A stretch of DNA of 64,000 bases, from NCBI RefSeq assembly GCF_030013595.1, contig NZ_CP122768.1; one strand, given 5' to 3'. Below, in pieces: positions 397 through 54,181 of this stretch (position 1 is the stretch's first letter; the number at the start of each line of letters is the position of its first letter). This stretch comes from Escherichia coli. GTDB lineage: Bacteria > Pseudomonadota > Gammaproteobacteria > Enterobacterales > Enterobacteriaceae. Under the pieces are notes generated by a model. That model was not told the DNA's origin, did not search any database, and worked only from the letters and a program-made list of their open reading frames with translations. Both the position numbers and the translations under genes were made by a program.

Positions 397-1032
397 TTAG
401 CGAGCTAATATATTCAAAGAATTTAACAATTGAGTGTCGAGTGTTTCAGTTGCAGGAATCGGTAATCCATTCGCAATGCGGTAATTTTTCACAGACAGCC
501 TTGTGGATGGCCCCATTATGCCGTCAATATTTCCGTTATAAAATCCCCTGTCCAGCAATGCGAACTGAACTCGCATAATCAATCGCTTACGTTTCTCTGC
601 ATCAGAAGCAAGCCCATTACTCGTACGGTTAACCTCTGAAGTTCCAACAGAACTCGTGTTAGTGGTTCTATTATTATCGTTAGAACGAAGTGCACGCACC
701 GAGGAAGAGGACGATGAGGAACTTGCACCTGAACTTGAAGAACCAGATGAACTTGGTGAGCTGTATGTTTTTGGATAATAGGGGGTACTTCCACCATAGT
801 ATCCACCACCTGATGAGGATCTATGAGAGCTATGGCTCCTATGAGAACTATGGCTTCGATGCCCTGCGATATAAAATGGGACTTCCGTGTTAAGTGGAGC
901 TATCACTAAATCATGCTCATTAAGAGTCATACCAGGTAAATCACTCGCTCCTGTAGATGAATCGCTTGCCCATACAGAATTGTTGAGAGCCAAAAATCCC
1001 GGAAGTAGAGCAGCAAAATTAAACTTTTTCAT
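397..1032 (-). CDS. hxsA: HxsA-type His-Xaa-Ser repeat protein (signal peptide, tandem H-x-S triplets, Ser/Gly/Tyr-rich tract, C-terminal peptidoglycan-binding domain)
   Basis: Translation from MKKFNFAALLPGFLALNNSVWA (Sec-like signal) contains HRSHSSHRSHSSHRS, then SSPSSSGSSSSGASSSSSSSS, then a PG_binding_1-like C-terminus (LLDRGFYNGNIDGIMGPSTRLSVKNYRIANGL). Start ATG overlaps upstream gene stop (ATGA). Confidence 0.8.
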   Translation of the reverse strand: MKKFNFAALLPGFLALNNSVWASDSSTGASDLPGMTLNEHDLVIAPLNTEVPFYIAGHRSHSSHRSHSSHRSSSGGGYYGGSTPYYPKTYSSPSSSGSSSSGASSSSSSSSVRALRSNDNNRTTNTSSVGTSEVNRTSNGLASDAEKRKRLIMRVQFALLDRGFYNGNIDGIMGPSTRLSVKNYRIANGLPIPATETLDTQLLNSLNILAR

Positions 1033-2141
1033 AAAATTGGTCTCGGTGATTGATGAAAACGGCCTTTTGAGGAACTGAAATAGCCAGCACAGGAAGGCTT
1101 CTGAGTACATTCATCACATTCTTTTGGATAGTAATTTTTCCAATCAGAGATCGACTGAACAGCAAGCTCCCTAGCCCTTTCAGGAAGATAACACAAAGGA
1201 TAATTAAAAATTGTCAGAGGTATGCCTGACCTGTATGCAGCGTCTATGGCAGAGATTATTTTCTCACTATAACTACTGTGATCAATGAAGATGGTGGACC
1301 AGTTTTTTCGTGCCCAACCGATAGGCTCCAACCCCATAAGGGAAATCTGATTGATGTTGGAGAACACACGGCCAGCGAATTCTACGATATCATCCAATTC
1401 GGTATAGTTAGCCAGTGTAGGAATAACTCTAAGTTCGATATTAATCCCCAAGTTTCCTGCATTGATTAACCCTTTAACCGTTTCATTAAATGCGCCATCA
1501 CTCCCTACCAGATGATCATGCACAAGTGGTCTTGATGAGTAGAGCGGGATACCAAAGGTGATTTTGATCTTTTTGCTTCGCTTTGCCATTTCCTGTGTAA
1601 AGTTGGTATCAGCAAATTTGCGTCCGTTTGTTAAAACATGTAAAGCAGTATCTGGTGAATTCTCGATGATAAAATCAATGAAGTGAAGGAAGTCATCCCC
1701 ATATAGCAAAGGTTCACCACCGCTGACCCCAACAACTCCGTTCAAGCCAAATGAAGCTATAGCAAGAGCTGATTGGGTAAGTAGCCAGTCATCATTTATT
1801 TTCTTTGGTGGCTGCGAACAAAACAGACACAAGTTATTGCAGCGTTCCGTAACTAAGACAGTATTATGATTGGCTTTGCGTGACAGAATAACGCGTATCA
1901 TATTGCCATTGTTGATTATCCCAATATCTCCATCTTCAATTGACTCAAATAATTCAGTGCTAATAACAGAGAAATCAAAGCATGGTGGAATGGCATCATT
2001 ATTGCCTTCAGCAACTACTAGCAAATTGGGCAAAAAGAATAAAGGGTTCACTGGTTTTTGTTTGCATAACCGATAGAACCCCGTGGGCACGTTCTCTGTA
2101 GAAGCAAAATGAAAGATATCGTTCCTGATAACCTCAGACAT
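1029..2141 (-). CDS. Radical SAM maturase of the His-Xaa-Ser system (HxsB/HxsC-type; which of the two is not resolved)
   Basis: 370 aa ORF with CNNLCLFC (CxxxCxxC radical SAM cluster) and a C-terminal Cys-rich region (CDECTQKPSCAGY); sits between the other rSAM gene and hxsA with overlapping stop/start codons. Confidence 0.8.
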   Translation of the reverse strand: MSEVIRNDIFHFASTENVPTGFYRLCKQKPVNPLFFLPNLLVVAEGNNDAIPPCFDFSVISTELFESIEDGDIGIINNGNMIRVILSRKANHNTVLVTERCNNLCLFCSQPPKKINDDWLLTQSALAIASFGLNGVVGVSGGEPLLYGDDFLHFIDFIIENSPDTALHVLTNGRKFADTNFTQEMAKRSKKIKITFGIPLYSSRPLVHDHLVGSDGAFNETVKGLINAGNLGINIELRVIPTLANYTELDDIVEFAGRVFSNINQISLMGLEPIGWARKNWSTIFIDHSSYSEKIISAIDAAYRSGIPLTIFNYPLCYLPERARELAVQSISDWKNYYPKECDECTQKPSCAGYFSSSKGRFHQSPRPIL

Positions 2142-3522
2142 ATGCCCATCCTTTTAGCATCTCAGCCTTCGAACCACCCTCTGAGATGCAGTTCATCAGA
2201 TACCTGAACATCCCCTTGTGATATTGACAAAACGTTGAACGACTCCTATCACCGACAGGCTCACCCTGTACACTTATGTTCTGGCATGGATCTGAACCAC
2301 AAAATGGTTGATATGCACATGTATCACAACCTGGCAGAGCAAAATTGAACGATGAACTCAATACTGCGTTATAGTAAGGACTATCAGAAAATGATAGCGT
2401 CTTAACTTCACCCGCACTGAACTCCGTTTCAGGATTCACCTTCTGCAACATACGGCTCTCATCGCTACCATATACTCGACCGTCATAATTGAAAAGAATA
2501 CTGTTAAGCACGACTCCACTTGGAGACTTTAAATCCGCATAACCACTAAAACCGGGATTGAAGATCCTTTTCAGATGAATGGAGGCCGAATGTTCCACAA
2601 CCCTTATCCCTTCATTATTAATCTTAAGGATTTCATCTATCAACGAGGCATAGAAGCTGAAGTATTCGTCCATAGAAAAGGTGAAAGAAGCTTTTTGTGC
2701 AAACCCATAGGGACTAACAGGTCGGATAAACATGTCCTTGAGACCAAGAGACAAGTGAGCCTGAACAATCGATTCAGGACGTCTGATAAGCTCTTTAGTA
2801 ACTGTAGTAACCGTTGCAACGCGGCCAGCACCTAAAGAGTGTTTGATAGCCTCTACCCCTGACACTGTTCTACTGTACGCAAGCCCACGACCAAGAATTC
2901 GATTACTGTTGTGAACAACTTCCTCACCATCAAGCGACACAGAGAACGTTATGTTCCGGTCTCTCGACCATTCAATCATATCCTCATTCAAGACAGACAG
3001 ACTTGATGCCACCACCATCTCAAAATTGGTTCTTCCCAGCGTTTCAGCACATTGATCATAGATGCTCTGAATTAAATCAAACCGCAAGAGAGGCTCCCCA
3101 CCCTGTATCTCTATTTTGTAAGGTGGCGTTGATAGTTTTTTAATAGCCGAAATAATATCGGGGATGAGCTCAGGATTTAGGTCGTAACCTGAGGCATTAA
3201 CAGAAGCTCTACTAACCTGGCAATACTTGCATGTATGGTCACAACGTAATGTGGGTACAATCATGAAAATTGGCCTGACAGCCAGTTCATTCATCAATCG
3301 TTTTGCAAAAGCAGAACTTAAAGCATAGGGAGTTATAGCAGATGAGCTTTCACTGGTTATGAAAAGCTTACTTTCTAGCACGTTTGATTGCTCCGAACTA
3401 ATTCGCTCATCAGAAAGATCAATAAGGTCTTGCTCACCAATGAAATGATGAAAACCTGCAAGGTTGCTTATAAACACCTGTCCATTAGGCAATCTGTCAA
3501 AATTAAATGGCATCAATTCCAT
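2134..3522 (-). CDS. Radical SAM/SPASM-type maturase of the His-Xaa-Ser system (HxsB/HxsC-type)
   Basis: 462 aa ORF with CDHTCKYC radical SAM motif and C-terminal auxiliary-cluster cysteines (CDTCAYQPFCGSDPCQ...FCQ); stop overlaps next gene start by 8 nt; start overlaps hxsD stop (TAATG). Confidence 0.8.
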   Translation of the reverse strand: MELMPFNFDRLPNGQVFISNLAGFHHFIGEQDLIDLSDERISSEQSNVLESKLFITSESSSAITPYALSSAFAKRLMNELAVRPIFMIVPTLRCDHTCKYCQVSRASVNASGYDLNPELIPDIISAIKKLSTPPYKIEIQGGEPLLRFDLIQSIYDQCAETLGRTNFEMVVASSLSVLNEDMIEWSRDRNITFSVSLDGEEVVHNSNRILGRGLAYSRTVSGVEAIKHSLGAGRVATVTTVTKELIRRPESIVQAHLSLGLKDMFIRPVSPYGFAQKASFTFSMDEYFSFYASLIDEILKINNEGIRVVEHSASIHLKRIFNPGFSGYADLKSPSGVVLNSILFNYDGRVYGSDESRMLQKVNPETEFSAGEVKTLSFSDSPYYNAVLSSSFNFALPGCDTCAYQPFCGSDPCQNISVQGEPVGDRSRSTFCQYHKGMFRYLMNCISEGGSKAEMLKGWAYV

Positions 3523-3836
3523 TATGAAAGCCTCTCATCAACACTGCGAAGCACTTTATGGACAATAGAGTCTCTCAACGCCCCTGTTTTATGCTGTAGC
3601 TTTTCTCGCAAAGAGTAATCATTAAGCAGCCTATCGAATTCATAAAGGAATTTGGGATTATCGTTTTCAAAAGAGATTATCCAGTGGGAAACGTCTTCAT
3701 GGAGTTTCCATCGAGTAAGCGGAGTCATCCAATATAGACTATTGCGTATAACCCATTCAGAATATAGTTCTTTCTCAAACACTCTTTCGCTCATTGCAAT
3801 TATCTTCCAATACAAATATTCATGATCAGCAACCAC
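3522..3836 (-). CDS. hxsD: HxsD-type small protein carrying the LLNDYxLRE signature
   Basis: 104 aa ORF containing FDRLLNDYSLREKLQ; first gene of the four-gene minus-strand operon. True start may be an internal Met (MSERVF). Confidence 0.75.
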   Translation of the reverse strand: MVADHEYLYWKIIAMSERVFEKELYSEWVIRNSLYWMTPLTRWKLHEDVSHWIISFENDNPKFLYEFDRLLNDYSLREKLQHKTGALRDSIVHKVLRSVDERLS

Positions 3837-4902: not shown

Positions 4903-4928
4903 AAGAAAAAAGGCCGCAGAGCGGCCTT
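4903..4928 (-). terminator. Rho-independent terminator ending the minus-strand lambdoid gene set
   Basis: aggccgcagagcggcct hairpin with an A-run on plus strand (T-run on minus strand) immediately 3' of the ORF ending at 4949. Confidence 0.55.
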
Positions 4929-4948
4929 TATGGTTTATTGACAATTGA

Positions 4949-6266: not shown

Positions 6267-6812
6267 TTAAACCACCACGCGCTCTTTCATCCAGCCATAG
6301 ACAAACGACTCATTGGCCTCGCGTTTCTCTGCCAGCTCCAGATAACGCTCGCCCTGCGTACAGTTCAGGGCTTTCACCAGTACCAGTTCACCATCCCTGC
6401 TGCGATTTTTCAGATATGCCCGTAATGCATTAAGAGTACGCGGCCCGATGCGTCCATCAGCATCCATATCCGGATAGAGTTTCCCGCGCAGGTTGAAAAC
6501 GTTCAGCCAGCGCTGAAGCATTCTGGACGCCACAGTTGGCCCCATGTTCACGCCCGTATCGCACAACTCTGCGGCAATATCCGGAGACAGGTCCTCAACC
6601 TGGTCGAATCGTGGTCCGTACCAGTAGTCCGCCTCGAGTATTTCCAGCGCCTGCCCACGCGTCAGGTCACGCATATCGCCCTGATAACCGTGTGCACGGG
6701 CAACTTTTTCAGTGATGCCCCATTTAGTCGGACCACCTTTATCATCCGGGTGATTGACGTAACCGCCCTCTTTTCCCAGAATTTCGTCAAAAATTTCATC
6801 TTTCGACTTCAT
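6267..6812 (-). CDS. Endolysin, GH108-like muramidase with peptidoglycan-binding region
   Basis: MKSKDEIFDEILGKEGGYVNHPDDKGGPTKWGITE N-terminus typical of GH108 lysozyme-like phage proteins; follows two holin-like membrane genes. Confidence 0.65.
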   Translation of the reverse strand: MKSKDEIFDEILGKEGGYVNHPDDKGGPTKWGITEKVARAHGYQGDMRDLTRGQALEILEADYWYGPRFDQVEDLSPDIAAELCDTGVNMGPTVASRMLQRWLNVFNLRGKLYPDMDADGRIGPRTLNALRAYLKNRSRDGELVLVKALNCTQGERYLELAEKREANESFVYGWMKERVVV

Positions 6813-6813
6813 A

Positions 6814-7104
6814 TCAGCGCCTTCGTAATACAAGGATTTTTGATACGTTCCCGCGTGCTCGTATCACCAGCACGCAGAACACCAGGTTAATCAGGACGAC
6901 CAGCCAGTTACCGGGAGGAAAGCGACCACACAGATAACAAAGCGGCGCAAAGGCATAAAGCAGCATCAGCAGCCAGGCCAGCCACGACATCAGCGGTTTA
7001 TGTCTCGACTCACCACGACGATAAAAAAAGAGCGTCAGCACGATAACCGTGCTTAACACCACATTCAGTAATCCGGGAAGGTTACTTAACATTACCGCCT
7101 CCAC
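6814..7104 (-). CDS. Small multi-pass membrane protein, holin/antiholin-like
   Basis: 96 aa, strongly hydrophobic segments, wedged between holin-like gene and endolysin. Confidence 0.45.
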   Translation of the reverse strand: MEAVMLSNLPGLLNVVLSTVIVLTLFFYRRGESRHKPLMSWLAWLLMLLYAFAPLCYLCGRFPPGNWLVVLINLVFCVLVIRARGNVSKILVLRRR

Positions 7105-7471
7105 CCCGCAGACGGGAGAACAGCCCGGATACCAGCGATGCGATATCCTGCTGGTGGATGAATGAGAGAATCTTCACCGACACCACCGATACCAGTACCG
7201 CACAAAGCGCGTCGAGAGATGTGCTGTGGAGATTCAATTTTTCGACCAGCCAGGACGCAAGGACATCCGCCCCCAGCACGCCAACAATGAACGACACCAG
7301 AAAATGCGCCGCCACACGCCAGACAGAAATCACCTGTGGCATCGTGGCCACAAACAACGCCCCGGCAAACGCGCCAAACACAATCCCGAAATCCGTCCCG
7401 GTAAACAGCCCGAATACCGTCGCCCCGCCGAGCGCCACAGCAGTGCTGGAACCGGATAAGGGTTCAGACAT
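7082..7471 (-). CDS. Holin-like membrane protein
   Basis: Start MSEPLSG at 7471 with GGAGAA RBS; Gly/Ala-rich transmembrane segments; first gene of the lysis cassette. Confidence 0.5.
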   Translation of the reverse strand: MSEPLSGSSTAVALGGATVFGLFTGTDFGIVFGAFAGALFVATMPQVISVWRVAAHFLVSFIVGVLGADVLASWLVEKLNLHSTSLDALCAVLVSVVSVKILSFIHQQDIASLVSGLFSRLRGGGGNVK

Positions 7472-7670
7472 ATTTATTCTCCTGTAAATAAAAAGGACCA
7501 TCAGCGGCCCCGTAACTGACATTTTATTAACGTTTGAAGATATGGATATTTATCAGGGTTTACCGTTTTCTGAACCCTGGATATGTTAAGCATTCAGCCC
7601 GCCAGTGGTGGGACGCTGGCTCATCATAGAGAAAGAGGGATGGCTGATTACCTCTGATCAGGGAAATCAC

Positions 7671-7940
7671 ATGCAGTTTTTACATAAAAGAATGCATTTA
7701 AATGCAGGAGATACGGTAGTGGTTGACTGCTCTCATCAGTGCAATATTTTGCTGATGACAGATACAAACTTTAATAACTACCGCAACGCAAGAAGCTTTC
7801 ATCATCACGGTGGTGGCGGTTTTTTTCAGAGATTACCGGCCCACCTTCATGTACCGCATTCAGGTTACTGGAATATTACAATTGATTTAGGAGGCGGAAG
7901 TGCAGCTATTCGGCACTCCATTTCCGTCATCCCAGCATAG
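7671..7940 (+). CDS. Hypothetical phage protein, antisense to the late operon
   Basis: ATG at 7671 with AGGGA RBS (the listed ORF begins at a GTG at 7605); hairpin plus T-run downstream at about 8196-8235. Confidence 0.4.
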   Translation: MQFLHKRMHLNAGDTVVVDCSHQCNILLMTDTNFNNYRNARSFHHHGGGGFFQRLPAHLHVPHSGYWNITIDLGGGSAAIRHSISVIPA

Positions 7941-8298
7941 CAACTCGCCTTTAGCCTGAGTAAATGCGTCCTCAAGGACGGCAACGAGTCGCAGTTGCGT
8001 GCCGTCCTTTACACAGCGTGTGCAGGCAATACCTTCAGAACTTTCATTATGCCGAGCTCATACAATTTCACCATTTTGTTCAACTACAACGCTCATAATT
8101 TTCTTACACTTTTTTAATAAACCACACCAATAACAACCATCACCGATACCTTTTGTATGCTGTTATTTTGCATTACGGTGTAACGGCAAGAGCCCCCTCC
8201 CCGCCCTGAAAGGCTCTGTGTTTTTGATGTGCGCCTGATGTGGCTCAGATACAAAAAAGCTCGCAGTAGCGAGCTAACAGAAAATATGAAGCATGTTT

Positions 8299-8577
8299 TT
8301 ATCCACGAAGTATGACGTTGAATTCATCCATACCGACACGGCTGGCTATCTCGTTGTATTCCTCAACAAGAGCCAGCAATTCTGAATTAGCAGCCATGAA
8401 CTCTTCAAAAACCTTATGGATGGCATCACTGTTTAATAAAACAATGTTCTTTCCTGAAAGGCGATCAGGGGTAGAAAATATAACTGTCAAACGACTAAAG
8501 GCCCTGGCTCGTTCAGCATTAACATCCTCAATACGCTGCAACAAGCTGGAGCACCTGGAAATATCATCAATATTCAC
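8299..8577 (-). CDS. Hypothetical protein (cargo between Q and lysis genes)
   Basis: 92 aa ORF followed by a minus-strand hairpin terminator (gctcgcagtagcgagc with T-run) near 8254-8280. Confidence 0.4.
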   Translation of the reverse strand: MNIDDISRCSSLLQRIEDVNAERARAFSRLTVIFSTPDRLSGKNIVLLNSDAIHKVFEEFMAANSELLALVEEYNEIASRVGMDEFNVILRG

Positions 8578-9095: not shown

Positions 9096-10181
9096 TTAGC
9101 TCCTGTTCTTATCTAATTGTGCATTTCGCAATTTATCGTTCAGCACCAATATTTCACCAACTGTTTGTTCAAAACGCCCGGACTCAAGTTCAACCCCAAT
9201 CGTGCGACGCCCCAATCCCATTGCTGCTTTTATTGTTGCCCCCGATCCCATAAAAAAATCCGCAACCACATCCCCCGGACGACTGCTGGCAGAAATTATC
9301 TGACGCAACATATCCGCCGGTTTTTCGCAGGGATGCTTACCCGGATAATACTGCACGGGCTTATGCGTCCAGACGTCCGTATAAGGAACGGCGGCCGATA
9401 CAGAAAAATAACGCCGCAGAGATTTGTATTCCTCAAGCAGACTGGCATATTGCCGGTTCAGTTCACTGTATGTGCTGACCAGTTGCTGGTGTGGCGTTGC
9501 CAGCTCCCCACGCTGGTGCTTTTCTTCTGCAACACACGCGAACAGCGCCTGCAGTTTTCTGTAATCAGCTTCGTTCGGTAACTGCCACTGACAGGTACCA
9601 AACCAGTGCGACACCATGTTTTTCTTTCCGGTGGCTTCCGCTATCTGTTTGGACGTTATCCCCAGTGATTCACGCGCATCACGGAAGTAAGAAATCAGCG
9701 GGGCCATGACGTGTTGTTTAAGCTCGCGCTCCTTTGCCGCATAGCCATCATTTTTTGGCTGGTATGGCCCCTGATAATGTTCGGCAAACAGAATGCGCTC
9801 TGTTGCCGGGAAATACGCCCGCAGGCTTTCTTTGTTGCACCCGTTCCAGCGTCCGGATGGCTTCGCCCAGATAATGTGGTTCAGCACATTAAAGCGCTCA
9901 CGCATCATGATTTCGGTGTCAGATGCCAGGCGATGACCACAGAACAGGTAGAGACTTCCGGCAGGTTTCAGTACCCGCCAGAACTGAGCCAGACACTGAT
10001 CCAGCCATTTCAGGTAATCATCGTCGCCCTTCCACTGGTTATCCCAGCCCTCGGGCTTCACTTTAAAGTATGGCGGGTCTGTGACTATCAGATCGACAGA
10101 GTTTTCCGGTAAGGTCTGGATAAATTCCAGGCAATCAGCGTTGATTAACTCACAACTGGATATTTTTACAGTATCAACCAT
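9096..10181 (-). CDS. Orphan DNA N6-adenine (or N4-cytosine) methyltransferase, beta class
   Basis: LIVTDPPYF (motif IV) precedes DFFMGSGATIKAA (motif I); no adjacent restriction endonuclease gene. Confidence 0.75.
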   Translation of the reverse strand: MVDTVKISSCELINADCLEFIQTLPENSVDLIVTDPPYFKVKPEGWDNQWKGDDDYLKWLDQCLAQFWRVLKPAGSLYLFCGHRLASDTEIMMRERFNVLNHIIWAKPSGRWNGCNKESLRAYFPATERILFAEHYQGPYQPKNDGYAAKERELKQHVMAPLISYFRDARESLGITSKQIAEATGKKNMVSHWFGTCQWQLPNEADYRKLQALFACVAEEKHQRGELATPHQQLVSTYSELNRQYASLLEEYKSLRRYFSVSAAVPYTDVWTHKPVQYYPGKHPCEKPADMLRQIISASSRPGDVVADFFMGSGATIKAAMGLGRRTIGVELESGRFEQTVGEILVLNDKLRNAQLDKNRS

Positions 10182-10331
10182 AGATCAATAAGCACTTCTC
10201 TGATAGGCTCATACCGCTTTTGCGCAAAGCAGATGGGCCTGAGGTTTGCTTGTGACCCTAACGCATGAGCAGATGGCTGGCAGGTGCCGCTAACACCCAC
10301 CAGCCGCCCATTACCACAAATGAAAAAACCT

Positions 10332-10529
10332 TCACTGCGGAAGGCGTCTGTAACAACCGAACTGATAATCTGCCAGACCCGCCATAACAAGCTGGGTCAG
10401 TATTAACTGACAGCGTTCGCGTGAAAGGTAAGTATTCTGCGCAATTTCCCCAACTGTTGCCGGTTCAGTGACGCTTAATTCATTAAACACCACTCTGGCT
10501 GTTTCGGTCATATCCTGCTGTTTTAGCAT
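10332..10529 (-). CDS. Small hypothetical protein, possibly DNA-binding
   Basis: 65 aa ORF upstream of the methyltransferase. Confidence 0.3.
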   Translation of the reverse strand: MLKQQDMTETARVVFNELSVTEPATVGEIAQNTYLSRERCQLILTQLVMAGLADYQFGCYRRLPQ

Positions 10530-10702
10530 GTCTTTTTCTCTTTATTGGTTAACGTGACATACCAATAACTCTTGTCGAAAAAGCCAGCAAGCTGAAAGAC
10601 CGGTATTAATAACCACCTGCACATTTTATGTACCGAACCATTTTTCTGGCATAAAAAACCTCTCAATGGCGGGCGGTAAAAATCTTTGTTACTCAAGAAA
10701 TT

Positions 10703-11416
10703 TTAACGCACTCTGACTGTATTAATTTCAAAATCATTAATATTTCCGCTATTAAATATAACGAATTTCTTACCCCCACTCCTGTATGATTTCGATAACA
10801 CCAGACGATCATCATAACGCGCAATAATGTAATACCATACATTCTCATAGTGGATCGCCTGATATTCCCTCTTAAACTGTGGTTTGTACCAACCGGCAAT
10901 AAGAGAGAATGCCCAGAAATAAATCATAAACCCAGCCATCATGAACTCAATTCGGTGATGACGAATAAAAGACATTTCCGAAAAACATTTGACTGAAACA
11001 AGTCTTCTTCCAAACCTGACAAAAAGCGTGATTGTAAAGGCAGCAAGAATGCAGAAAATCAGTACATCTGGCTCAACATGCTGATGGATTACCGAAAACT
11101 CCAGAACAGGTGGAATAAAAAGCAGCAATATCGCGAGAAAAAGCCGGATAAAACTCAAATTTTGTATATTGCGCTTTTGTTTTATGCCCAAAAAGAAAAC
11201 AATACCAACTCCCCATCCAATAAGGAATATAACGATAACTGTCACAGCATAAAACAAACTTCGTGCTACATCATCGACACCAGCCCCGACAACCCACCAT
11301 GGAAAGCCATAGTAAAATGAAGTACCCCATCCATAGAAATAAGCGCTTCCCCATCCTAGACAGCCCATATAAGCAACAAAAAGTGAAGAGTTTCTGAGCA
11401 GAGCACTGTCATCCAT
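10703..11416 (-). CDS. Multi-pass membrane protein of unknown function (first gene after pR'/tR')
   Basis: 237 aa with about four hydrophobic helices and an approx 50 aa soluble C-terminus; lies in a visibly AT-rich segment. Confidence 0.5.
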   Translation of the reverse strand: MDDSALLRNSSLFVAYMGCLGWGSAYFYGWGTSFYYGFPWWVVGAGVDDVARSLFYAVTVIVIFLIGWGVGIVFFLGIKQKRNIQNLSFIRLFLAILLLFIPPVLEFSVIHQHVEPDVLIFCILAAFTITLFVRFGRRLVSVKCFSEMSFIRHHRIEFMMAGFMIYFWAFSLIAGWYKPQFKREYQAIHYENVWYYIIARYDDRLVLSKSYRSGGKKFVIFNSGNINDFEINTVRVR

Positions 11417-11554: not shown

Positions 11555-11583
11555 GATAAAAAAACCCGCTCGGTCACGGGTTT
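11555..11583 (-). terminator. tR'-like Rho-independent terminator
   Basis: aaacccgtgaccgagcggguuu hairpin followed by T-run on the minus strand, about 50 nt downstream of the putative pR'. Confidence 0.55.
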
Positions 11584-11637
11584 TACTAGCTTTGCCATCA
11601 CGTATAAAAACGGCAAAATATCAGATTCACACGAAAT

Positions 11638-11666
11638 ATATGCCTTTTTATCTACTTTTGCAATAC
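11638..11666 (-). promoter_or_regulatory. pR'-like late promoter immediately downstream of Q
   Basis: Minus-strand TTGCAA, 17 nt spacer, TATATT; positioned between Q stop (11671) and the terminator. Confidence 0.45.
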
Positions 11667-11670
11667 TTTG

Positions 11671-12342
11671 CTATGAAAATGCCGCCTTTTGTTTTGAACG
11701 TGTTCCCTCCACCAACAATAAAGCTTCACCATCCAGCCGATGAAAAATGTGTTTCATTGCAACCCAGTGACCAGTAAATGTCTTGGACCAGTTTTTGGTT
11801 GTTACTCCCACCAGTAACGCCAGTTCCTGGTATTCGTAACCTTCCCCACCAAAAAGCTCAGCTTTTACCGCCTGCGCCGCCAACCAGATCAACGTCTTCA
11901 GGCGCACCAGAGTTTTTCCTGCAATTTTTCTGGTACCGGATTGAGCATTAAATTCAGTCCACGCCCACTGCGTTATCGCGATCTGATGCTCCCAGCAAAT
12001 GCTACCGCTGTAACACCACAGCAGCCAGGCTTTATGATGTTCTTCAAGAGACAGAACGGCGCGTCGCCATGATGATGTCGAAAACTCAACCGGACTGACC
12101 AGGGCAATTGATGAACCTTTCACCAGCGATTGCTTTCCCGGGATCGGTGGATTATCCAGCGTTACTATTTTTCCAGTGACCTTATCGCGGTACCGGATTT
12201 TTTTACGTCTGTAACGCCCTGTATTGAACATGGCATTCTCCTGCCAGGCTTCAAGCTGACCTTTTGTTGCTCCACTCAAATCAGCGGTGGCGATCATGAG
12301 CTGCTCACGCACAAACTGTAAATACTGGTTATTCATGCGCAC
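11671..12342 (-). CDS. Probable late antiterminator (Q-like)
   Basis: 223 aa ORF directly upstream of a promoter/terminator pair and downstream of rusA, the canonical Q position; family assignment by context only. Confidence 0.45.
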   Translation of the reverse strand: MRMNNQYLQFVREQLMIATADLSGATKGQLEAWQENAMFNTGRYRRKKIRYRDKVTGKIVTLDNPPIPGKQSLVKGSSIALVSPVEFSTSSWRRAVLSLEEHHKAWLLWCYSGSICWEHQIAITQWAWTEFNAQSGTRKIAGKTLVRLKTLIWLAAQAVKAELFGGEGYEYQELALLVGVTTKNWSKTFTGHWVAMKHIFHRLDGEALLLVEGTRSKQKAAFS

Positions 12343-12692
12343 TCCAGTTCTGTGATTTTTATCCCCAGCCGACCACCGGGAACAACCTGACCGCGCATAA
12401 TATTAACTTCATCAAACTGCTCATCGTCGATAAGCAGTCCCGCATGTGTCAGCGCATCCAGTGGTGCCTTCAGGATATTGTCCAGGTCGCGGCGGCGCTT
12501 ATCCGGTGGCTCTGCAATAATTTTTATTGCCAGCCTTCCGGACAGGTTTAATTTCAGTCGCTGCTGGCGAACAATAAGCGCCACATCACGGCGATAACGC
12601 TCACCGGCTTTTGATACAAAATATGTGCTGCCACGACGTCGCCAGTAGGTGTTCACCGTTGGCGGGTAAGGCAAAACAAATTCTATCCCCAT
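12333..12692 (-). CDS. rusA: RusA-family Holliday junction resolvase
   Basis: 119 aa; PYPPTVNTYWRRRG...RRRDLDNILKAPLDALTHAGLLIDD matches RusA conserved motifs. Confidence 0.85.
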   Translation of the reverse strand: MGIEFVLPYPPTVNTYWRRRGSTYFVSKAGERYRRDVALIVRQQRLKLNLSGRLAIKIIAEPPDKRRRDLDNILKAPLDALTHAGLLIDDEQFDEVNIMRGQVVPGGRLGIKITELECA

Positions 12693-14163: not shown

Positions 14164-14421
14164 ATGCGTACAACCCAACAATTCAGCATTACATTAACTA
14201 ACGAAATGGCTGACATGGTGCGCGCCCGTGTGGCTTCCGGTGCCTATGCTTCAGAAAGCGAGGTCATTCGTGAAGGGCTTCGCGCACTGAATGAGCGCGA
14301 TAAAGCAATCGAAGCGTGGTTAACGCATTCAGCCGCCCCCTCTCTTGATTCTATCCGCGAAACCCCAAACAACGGACGCTCCATTTCACAGGTTCGCGCC
14401 GCGATTCGATCCGGGAAGTAA
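14164..14421 (+). CDS. parD: ParD-family antitoxin (ribbon-helix-helix)
   Basis: 85 aa; MRTTQQFSITLTNEMADMVRARVASGAYASESEVIREGLRAL typical ParD; immediately upstream of a ParE-like gene. Confidence 0.8.
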   Translation: MRTTQQFSITLTNEMADMVRARVASGAYASESEVIREGLRALNERDKAIEAWLTHSAAPSLDSIRETPNNGRSISQVRAAIRSGK

Positions 14422-14426
14422 TCTGC

Positions 14427-14726
14427 ATGACATATGAAGTCATCATTACTCCTGAGGCCGAACAACAAATAATCAACCTGCACAGGTATATAACGGAGAA
14501 AGCAGGGAACGTCATTGCTGACAATTATGCCAATGCGCTTCTTGATTATCTTGATGGGTTTTCTACATTCCCGCATCGGGGCAATAAACGCGATGATATT
14601 CGCCAGGGGATGCGGGTAACTCATTTCCGCCACAGAACGATTATTGCTTTTGCCGTTGATAGCAGAAAAGTCTTTATTGTCGGTATCTATCATGGTGGGC
14701 AAAGTTATGAAACCGATTTCTTATAA
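14427..14726 (+). CDS. parE: ParE/RelE-family toxin
   Basis: 99 aa; starts 6 nt after parD stop; a hairpin terminator follows. Confidence 0.75.
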   Translation: MTYEVIITPEAEQQIINLHRYITEKAGNVIADNYANALLDYLDGFSTFPHRGNKRDDIRQGMRVTHFRHRTIIAFAVDSRKVFIVGIYHGGQSYETDFL

Positions 14727-52934: not shown

Positions 52935-53945
52935 TTAGATATGGGTAACGATTTCTTTAATCAGCGGCGGACCTTTAAAAATAAAACCAGAATAAATTTG
53001 CACCAGTGAGGCCCCCGCAGCAATCTTTTCACGCGCAGCGATAACCGAGTCAATGCCGCCAACACCGATGATCGGTAAGCGACCGTTTAATTCCTGTGAC
53101 AAGCGGCGAATAATTTCTGTGCTTTTTAACTGAAGCGGACGACCACTTAAGCCACCGGTTTGATCACAATTTTTCATTCCCTGAACCAGAGAACGATCGA
53201 GCGTGGTATTGGTTGCAATAACGCCATCAATATTATGGCGAACTAAACTATCGGCAACCTGGATCAATTCTTCTTCAGAAAGATCCGGCGCGATCTTCAC
53301 TGCGATCGGCACATATTTATGGTGCATCGCTTGCAAATCATTTTGCTTATTTTTAATCGCGGTTAAGAGATCATCCAGCGCTTCGCCATATTGCAGTGTG
53401 CGTAGTCCTGGGGTATTCGGCGATGAAATATTGATGGCGATATATCCCGCATAAGCATAGATTTTTTCCATACAAATCAGATAGTCATCTTTACCCTGCT
53501 CCACCGGCGTATCTTTATTTTTGCCGATGTTAATACCCAGGACGCCATCATAATGGGCTTTTTTTACGTTCTCTACGAGGTTATCAACGCCAAGATTATT
53601 AAAGCCCATACGGTTGATCAAACCTTCGGCATCTACCAGACGAAAGAGACGCGGCTTGTCATTACCTGGCTGTGGACGTGGCGTGACGGTACCGATCTCG
53701 ATCGATCCAAATCCCATCGCGCCTAACGCGTCAATGCACTCCCCGTCTTTATCAAGACCGGCTGCCAGACCAAGCGGATTTTTAAACGTCAGGCCCATGC
53801 AGTTAACAGGTTTCGCAGGCACTTTCTGCCGCACCAGTGCTTCAAACGGCGTTCCTGTAATACGGCGTAATTGCTGAAAAGTAAACTCATGAGCACGCTC
53901 TGGATCGAGCTGGAAAAGGGCTTTACGAACGAAGGGGTAGTACAT
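52935..53945 (-). CDS. pyrD: Dihydroorotate dehydrogenase (quinone)
   Basis: 336 aa from [21 protein letters not shown]. Confidence 0.95.
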
Positions 53946-54181
53946 GAACTCTCCTGGATTCCCGGTGTGCAAACCGGGGGCGTATTATGTGCGAGTTCGG
54001 ACCAAAAGGGAATTGACCTGTGGCAATAAATAGCAAACGTTTTCTTATTGCGCTTTTTTTATGCTTTTTTTGGCTTTTCTTCCTCAGATAAATCATTTCG
54101 ACTCGCGGACGCCCTCTGTCAGACTGACCGAATTGTTATCAATGTTAACAAAACAAGAACAATTGGTTATAAGGAGAGAGT

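Follow-up and report, generated by a model that had tools for sequence, protein, structure and literature searches.

The gene at positions 9096-10181 of a 64,000-nucleotide (nt) stretch of the Escherichia coli contig NZ_CP122768.1 (assembly GCF_030013595.1; the whole stretch is called the window below) encodes a prophage DNA methyltransferase of an already known kind. With a probability of roughly 0.78, we take it to be a non-specific enzyme of the M.EcoGII type that is made late in the phage cycle under the control of the antitermination protein Q, methylates phage DNA before packaging and thereby blunts restriction. The family has been characterised, its members are sold commercially and the sequence is annotated, making this protein one more allele. 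The one possibly new element at the locus is a conserved leader RNA that precedes the gene. The interest of the family lies in its biology in real infections: the extent to which virion DNA is methylated, the defences that are beaten or provoked, and the way in which an enzyme toxic to the cell is restrained until the last minutes.

A relative of the non-specific enzyme M.EcoGII

The original prediction described an orphan beta-class methyltransferase with motif IV ahead of motif I, and this assignment holds; the gene is on the minus strand, which had not been stated. Motif IV (DPPY) occupies amino acids (aa) 35-38 (nt 10068-10079) and lies N-terminal to motif I (FMGSG, aa 310-314, nt 9240-9254), with the target-recognition region between them, which is the order that defines the beta class. 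The order of the alpha-class Dam-like and promiscuous enzymes, with motif I N-terminal to motif IV, is not the one found here. The sole Pfam match of the protein is PF01555 (N6_N4_Mtase), which covers aa 29-340 at 146.5 bits (expect value (E) 1.5e-42; the curated cut-off is 26.7 bits), and the PADLOC type II methyltransferase model PDLC03265 scores 507 bits. Both lobes of the protein align with the solved enzymes M.RsrI, CcrM, M1.MboII and 8urk/9c3u, with DPPY and FxGxG in register, and the catalytic motifs are intact. Because of these two profile matches and the alignment of the lobes to solved enzymes, the DPPY/FxGxG pattern in the open reading frame (ORF) is, on sequence comparison, far beyond chance. 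M.RsrI, CcrM, M1.MboII, the M.HpyAVI/DpnA-like enzymes and 8urk/9c3u share the catalytic fold family and the motif order of the window methyltransferase (E 1e-23 to 1e-13). However, they are site-specific, and their recognition regions do not align with its residues ~113-280.

The closest characterised relative is not among the site-specific enzymes. M.EcoGII of E. coli O104:H4 has been characterised as a truly non-specific adenine methyltransferase that acts in any context (Murray et al. 2018, PMC5778455). The window protein is identical to M.EcoGII at 293 of 345 positions over the full length. Our M.EcoGII sequence was machine-read with a few errors from Table S1 of PMC11551740, and since reading errors can only lower the identity, the resulting figure is a lower bound: at least 85%. 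The table reads NHHIWAKPS where all real relatives read NHIIWAKPS, and the hand-corrected sequence has no exact match in the protein collection. By region, the two proteins agree at 127 of 134 residues in the N-terminal catalytic part, at 62 of 78 (79%) in the target-recognition region (residues 160-237) and at 68 of 83 in the C-terminal catalytic part. The window methyltransferase is also 85% identical, without gaps, to the enzyme of phage 1720a-02 (AGR48369), which has been described as very similar to M.EcoGII, within a "very large" family seated in an apparently well-defined prophage (PMC5778455). Its pairwise identity to the reconstructed ancestors Anc291, Anc289 and SUPREM is 87%, 86% and 71%, respectively. 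M.EcoGII, Anc291 and SUPREM have all been assayed and are largely non-site-specific, and the nearest site-specific relative that the authors of that work name, M.PflMI, is an outgroup (PMC11551740).

The window methyltransferase has 361 aa and M.EcoGII 349, a difference that comes from a different C-terminal tail. The architecture is otherwise the same as in M.EcoGII and M.EcoGI (E. coli O104:H4 strain C227-11; both enzymes are reportedly also credited to Fang 2012), with an N-terminal DPPY, a central helical recognition region and a C-terminal FxGxG. M.EcoGII and the window methyltransferase are both carried by lambdoid prophages. The recognition domain of the M.EcoGII type is a helical four-helix bundle with a helix-turn-helix, joined by a charged linker (PMC11551740). 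An AlphaFold model of the window protein places helices at residues 147-173, 177-184, 189-194, 204-223 and 231-254; the model was built on a shallow alignment of 25 sequences, and its low confidence (mean pLDDT, for predicted local distance difference test, of 64.5) made it too poor for a fold search.

From this kinship, the allele WP_000228659.1 can reasonably be predicted to recognise nothing besides the adenine that it methylates. The statement in the original prediction that the target site is unknown is thus out of date, as there is likely no site at all. The methylome of a strain expressing the gene would be expected to show no motif, because M.EcoGII methylates adenine in any context; as a practical point, an experiment designed to find a methylation motif for this protein would find none. 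A sequence-specific orphan methyltransferase with a new recognition site would agree with the fact that most PF01555 members are site-specific, with the name 'site-specific DNA-methyltransferase' that RefSeq and nr give the protein, and with the 16 of 78 target-recognition residues that differ from M.EcoGII. We nevertheless regard it as very improbable. The database name is a generic, automatic family label and is probably wrong for this protein, the closest assayed relative is non-specific over an alignment of the full length, SUPREM is still non-site-specific at its lower identity, and M.PflMI falls outside the group.

Two other kinds of enzyme were compared. The alpha-class phage methyltransferases of the M.HaeV/Hia5 type, which recognise BA (PMC5778455), are adenine methylases that have little or no sequence specificity, act similarly and have the same presumed anti-restriction purpose. 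However, FxGxG stands ahead of DPPY in them, the reverse of the order in the window methyltransferase, and their recognition region is not homologous. M.EcoGIX, initially taken for an enzyme of Stx phages, was dropped from consideration, as the literature describes it as a plasmid-borne, single-strand-specific methyltransferase.

The prophage late region and the proposed role

From about 4907 to about 27000 the window contains a lambdoid prophage, located beside yccA; prophages from isolates of pigs and cattle match this segment at 99.8% identity. The genes on the minus strand are ordered DUF968, RusA, Q, a 237-aa gene, a 65-aa gene, the methyltransferase, a 92-aa gene, two holins and the endolysin (Table 1). 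The methyltransferase gene therefore lies between Q and the lysis genes, and the earlier description of a phage-borne gene inside a late operon was correct. This placement is well supported, as far as sequence can tell, and the operon is probably Q-dependent. Sequence comparison of Q with the PDB found no relative.

Table 1. Features of the methyltransferase locus, with positions in the window.
Feature	Position	Strand	Remarks
Methyltransferase coding sequence	9096..10181	minus	ATG-to-stop ORF, 361 aa; identical to RefSeq WP_000228659.1
Non-coding leader	10182..10331	minus	150 nt; between 65-aa gene and methyltransferase ATG
Terminator-like hairpin	10328..10345	minus	GCCUUCCGCAGUGAAGGU then U-run; overlaps stop codon of 65-aa gene
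65-aa winged-helix protein gene	10332..10529	minus	phrog_331; annotated 'TrmB family' or hypothetical; usual upstream partner
237-aa gene	10703..11416	minus	predicted multi-pass membrane protein, phrog_1521; between Q/tR' and methyltransferase module
Candidate tR' intrinsic terminator	11558..11584	minus	AAAACCCGU-GACCGA-GCGGGUUUU then U-run
Candidate late promoter pR'	11635..11663	minus	TTGCAA-17-TATATT; starts 8 nt past Q stop codon
Antitermination protein Q	11671..12342	minus	PF06323, E 1e-89
RusA	12333-12692	minus	
92-aa gene	8299..8577	minus	phrog_2873; next downstream of methyltransferase; terminator-like hairpin 8258-8275
DUF1883 gene	7605-7940	plus	between 92-aa gene and holins
Lysis cassette	6267..7522	minus	holin 7082-7522, holin 6814-7104, endolysin 6267-6833; downstream end of late segment

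The 150 nt before the methyltransferase ATG contain no promoter-like site. The stem of the terminator-like hairpin at the end of the 65-aa gene covaries, with CUUC:GAAG in E. coli and CCUC:GAGG in Pantoea.

The position between Q and the lysis genes is also that of the methyltransferase gene in phiP27, 1720a-02, Stx2a_1447 and the Klebsiella and Pantoea prophages; at the Salmonella methyltransferase locus no Q or lysis gene was identified. L24 of the Stx2e phage phiP27 and the 'DNA methylase' of 1720a-02 and of Stx2a, Stx2c and Stx2d phages are orthologues of the window methyltransferase in the position after Q, with 83-89% nucleotide identity and with the same 65-aa gene and ~150-nt spacer upstream. 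In Stx phages, the methyltransferase gene is followed by tRNA genes and stxAB, whereas in the window it is followed by the 92-aa gene and the DUF1883 gene on the opposite strand, and a search across the window found no tRNA genes.

The description of the methyltransferase as an orphan was also confirmed. Pfam and PADLOC searches found no nuclease or defence family among the flanking products, and the closest HNH gene, in the nin region, is ~5 kb distant. A type II restriction-modification system was rejected on these grounds, since no cognate endonuclease gene stands beside the methyltransferase.

The lysogen does not express M.EcoGI or M.EcoGII, and their production slows the growth of the host (PMC5778455). 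The authors propose that a gene of the M.EcoGII type is switched on as the prophage starts a new infection, where it would defeat restriction (PMC5778455; also PMC7544214). Our proposal for the window gene follows the same lines. The enzyme would depend on S-adenosylmethionine, would probably be a homodimer of the beta class, and would place N6-methyl groups on adenines in any context. In a lysogen, transcripts from the candidate pR' would stop at tR', and a second hairpin 150 nt before the gene would add to this, so that the enzyme is not made. The gene is expected to be silent in this state because it lies behind the candidate pR'/tR' pair and the second terminator-like hairpin. Upon induction, Q would let RNA polymerase read through, and the enzyme would appear together with the lysis proteins. 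Shortly before packaging it would heavily methylate phage DNA as this replicates and, as a side effect, DNA and RNA of the host. The virion DNA would then be resistant to most type I, II and III restriction enzymes that have an A in their site.

The original prediction offered two roles for the gene. The first, protection of phage DNA from host restriction, is the accepted reading for the family. The second, modification of the host epigenetic state, is unlikely, because lysogens keep M.EcoGI and M.EcoGII silent and their expression is harmful, and because the window gene sits behind the candidate pR'/tR' pair and the second terminator-like hairpin.

At 4907-4935, the lambdoid prophage gives way to a P2-like segment with ogr, hok and HxsABCD, and the join runs through a hairpin sequence of 28 bp that both have in common, AAAAAAGGCCGCAGAGCGGCCTTT. 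Elsewhere, the P2-like segment adjoins ihfA, and the join is found in no complete E. coli genome of our collection. The lambdoid terminase and structural genes are absent from the window and are not contiguous with the late region. The join could be a rearrangement, an inversion with the rest of the phage elsewhere, the edge of a defective prophage or an assembly artefact. The P2-like prophage end carries as cargo the HxsABCD His-Xaa-Ser repeat peptide system (397-3836, minus strand) with two radical-SAM maturases, and other E. coli genomes have copies of the HxsABCD segment at 99.5% identity.

These observations raise the question of whether the methyltransferase gene is only a passenger in this genome, intact but idle in a prophage that is defective or rearranged, and owes its presence to recent descent instead of function. 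The late region does end in the P2-like segment where terminase genes would be looked for, by a join that recurs in no complete E. coli genome of the collection, and strain K_EC180, a close relative, has the same methyltransferase gene in a clearly decayed prophage. We consider a passenger unlikely all the same. The ORF and all motifs are intact, and the identical protein occurs on 940 contigs of a large protein collection and also in prophages whose terminase and portal genes are still present. An inversion or an assembly artefact could account for the join, and the argument concerns the role of this copy, not the activity of the protein.

Several points weigh against a late, non-specific, anti-restriction enzyme. 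About 15% of the residues differ from M.EcoGII, among them those 16 of the target-recognition region, and the protein ends in ~17 residues that do not resemble the tails of the 348-352 aa relatives. The low confidence of the AlphaFold model counts here as well. For pR' and tR', the assignment is by match to a consensus only. The element in the window may be unable to package DNA, given where its late region ends. Finally, we found no paper that demonstrates an anti-restriction role, virion DNA methylation or an effect on host range for the M.EcoGII family.

The leader RNA and the winged-helix gene upstream

The 150-nt spacer before the methyltransferase gene is conserved across enterobacterial genera, and all relatives that were examined have such a leader, of ~140-150 nt. 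A search with a pattern from the spacer in bacterial contigs (one genome per species) found 41 places, 34 of which have a methyltransferase match starting ~130 nt downstream. The genera with a leader include Escherichia, Klebsiella, Salmonella, Pantoea, Erwinia, Hafnia, Providencia, Morganella, Rosenbergiella and others. A covariance model from the leader alignment has 49 matches in the examined loci, a single one in the window (10179-10318, E 1e-32) and no match at three pattern places that are likely due to chance. The nucleotide identity of the spacer to Klebsiella, Pantoea and Salmonella is 81%, 75% and 71%, and that of the methyltransferase gene is 73%, 73% and 75%. The spacer is thus about as conserved as the flanking genes, though it is non-coding. 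An ORF that overlaps the leader (10166-10390) was rejected as coding, as relatives differ from it by single-base insertions and deletions that shift the frame.

The conservation appears to be that of a folded RNA. Folded one sequence at a time, 21 of 31 diverse leaders share one architecture, with a long 5' hairpin and a 3' domain, and an alternative fold is obtained for 8 of the 31. In the closing helix of the 3' domain, GGUCA-C-AAGCA is paired to UGCUU-AU-UGAUC, the bases that directly precede the AUG. The partners in this helix covary across genera, with AAGC:GCUU replaced by GGG:CCC or GGA:UCC. In the model-fitted alignment, which leans towards the model's own structure, 78 cells are changed on both sides of a pair, compared to 37.4 +/- 4.5 in shuffled alignments (0 of 500 reach 78) and to at most 34 in slid controls. 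The mRNA strand fits the structure better than its complement (80.9% vs 70.8% paired), through 260 G.U cells. When distant leaders were aligned by MAFFT alone and then folded with RNAalifold, the structure was poorer and different, because the covarying 3' segment had been misaligned, and this result was set aside.

No normal Shine-Dalgarno sequence precedes the methyltransferase AUG. No Rfam family matches the leader, either at the gathering threshold over the whole window or at E<=10 over nt 10100-10700. As a hypothesis, the leader looks like a cis-acting RNA that would limit or time the translation of a dangerous enzyme. More specifically, and only tentatively, the leader, usually with the 65-aa gene upstream of it, could be an undescribed cis-regulatory RNA that serves as a post-transcriptional safety catch on the methyltransferase, which, unchecked, would methylate the entire host genome. 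A remnant of the arrangement is seen in Enterobacter sp. Bisph1 (L093), where the leader and a fragment of the methyltransferase gene (2711-2848) stand directly after icd, which suggests a decayed prophage at the icd attachment site.

The 65-aa gene is also linked to the methyltransferase. In related loci with enough upstream sequence, it is present on the same strand ~150 nt before the methyltransferase ATG in 85 of 85, and the gap between the two is 149-151 nt in 77 of these. The arrangement of 65-aa gene and spacer is kept in Klebsiella, Pantoea and Salmonella prophages, and two further families of Q are found at the loci of Klebsiella and Pantoea. Across these three genera, the 65-aa protein is 80-86% identical and the methyltransferase 75-79%. 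Some species keep the leader and methyltransferase and are missing the 65-aa gene (loci L102, L115, L129 and L130), and because of these loci, the leader is the more tightly linked partner of the methyltransferase.

The 65-aa protein is modelled with confidence as a winged helix of the MarR/IclR type (pLDDT 89.6). In a Foldseek search, the model matched nothing but generic winged helices of this type, which gave no functional clue. Type II restriction-modification systems likewise have a gene for a small DNA-binding protein, the C protein, directly upstream of a potentially lethal gene. C proteins, however, are Xre-type helix-turn-helix proteins with defined C-box operators, whereas the 65-aa protein resembles MarR and TrmB winged helices; no operator was identified for it, and no adjacent endonuclease gene is there for it to control. 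Together, the leader RNA and the winged-helix partner provide concrete handles on how a toxic enzyme stays off until late.

A small partner protein also brings RNA into consideration as the relevant substrate, with N6-methyladenosine placed late on host or phage rRNA or mRNA to tune translation or induction. M.EcoGII marks ~30% of RNA adenines in vitro, and relatives do better (PMC11551740; PMC5778455). The Stx-prophage enzyme M.EcoPA8orf6770P depends on a small co-encoded partner, PNB-2, acts on 16S rRNA and changes the induction frequency (PMC10810198), and in the window, too, a small conserved protein gene accompanies the methyltransferase. For the 65-aa neighbour this is an analogy only, as M.EcoPA8orf6770P is unrelated to the window methyltransferase. 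It belongs to another family, MT-A70, with a DPPW motif, and is encoded as gp5 elsewhere in the phage. An MT-A70 identity for the window enzyme was rejected, as its Pfam match is to PF01555 only and its motif is DPPY. Moreover, M.EcoGII is ~90-fold faster on DNA than on RNA (PMC11551740 Table S3). We regard RNA as an improbable principal substrate, and DNA methylation by an enzyme of the M.EcoGII type is the reading that we retain.

Distribution, the variant tail and neighbouring genes

The gene is widespread in E. coli. Genes at least 80% identical to it in nucleotide sequence are present in 1894 of 5426 complete E. coli genomes (about a third), with up to 5 copies per genome. The RefSeq entry WP_000228659.1 bears the name 'DNA-methyltransferase'. 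Relatives occur in 38 phage records, nearly all of them Stx2 phages, with phiP27 and 1720a-02 in addition.

The last ~17 codons of the gene (about 9096-9149) encode the variant tail LVLNDKLRNAQLDKNRS, which replaces the short tails of the 348-352 aa relatives. The nucleotide similarity of the gene to other phages ends at ~9160-9169, and 9096-9169 is a mosaic junction: neither the last ~17 codons nor any of the sequence downstream of them is related to phiP27 or to Stx phages. The LVLNDKLRNAQLDKNRS tail recurs in other isolates. Since tails vary widely across the family, we expect that this one has no effect on activity.

The genes on either side of the methyltransferase module are more variable. 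The 237-aa gene is variable cargo: just 12 of 86 related loci have it, and IS1 interrupts it in strain K_EC180. The 92-aa gene is likewise present in only 12 of 86 loci; in the window it fills the slot that tRNA genes and stx occupy in Stx phages. It is flanked by promoter-like sites (8716-8687 and 8805-8778) and by a hairpin (8275-8258), a layout like that of a moron.

Two further features were noted in the window. A ParD/ParE toxin-antitoxin pair lies in the nin region at ~14164-14726 on the plus strand, according to the annotation of the near-identical HCP5S3_I2 prophage. In the chromosomal part of the window, an ordinary PyrD leader is found at 53940-54013 on the minus strand (Rfam RF02373, 97.9 bits).

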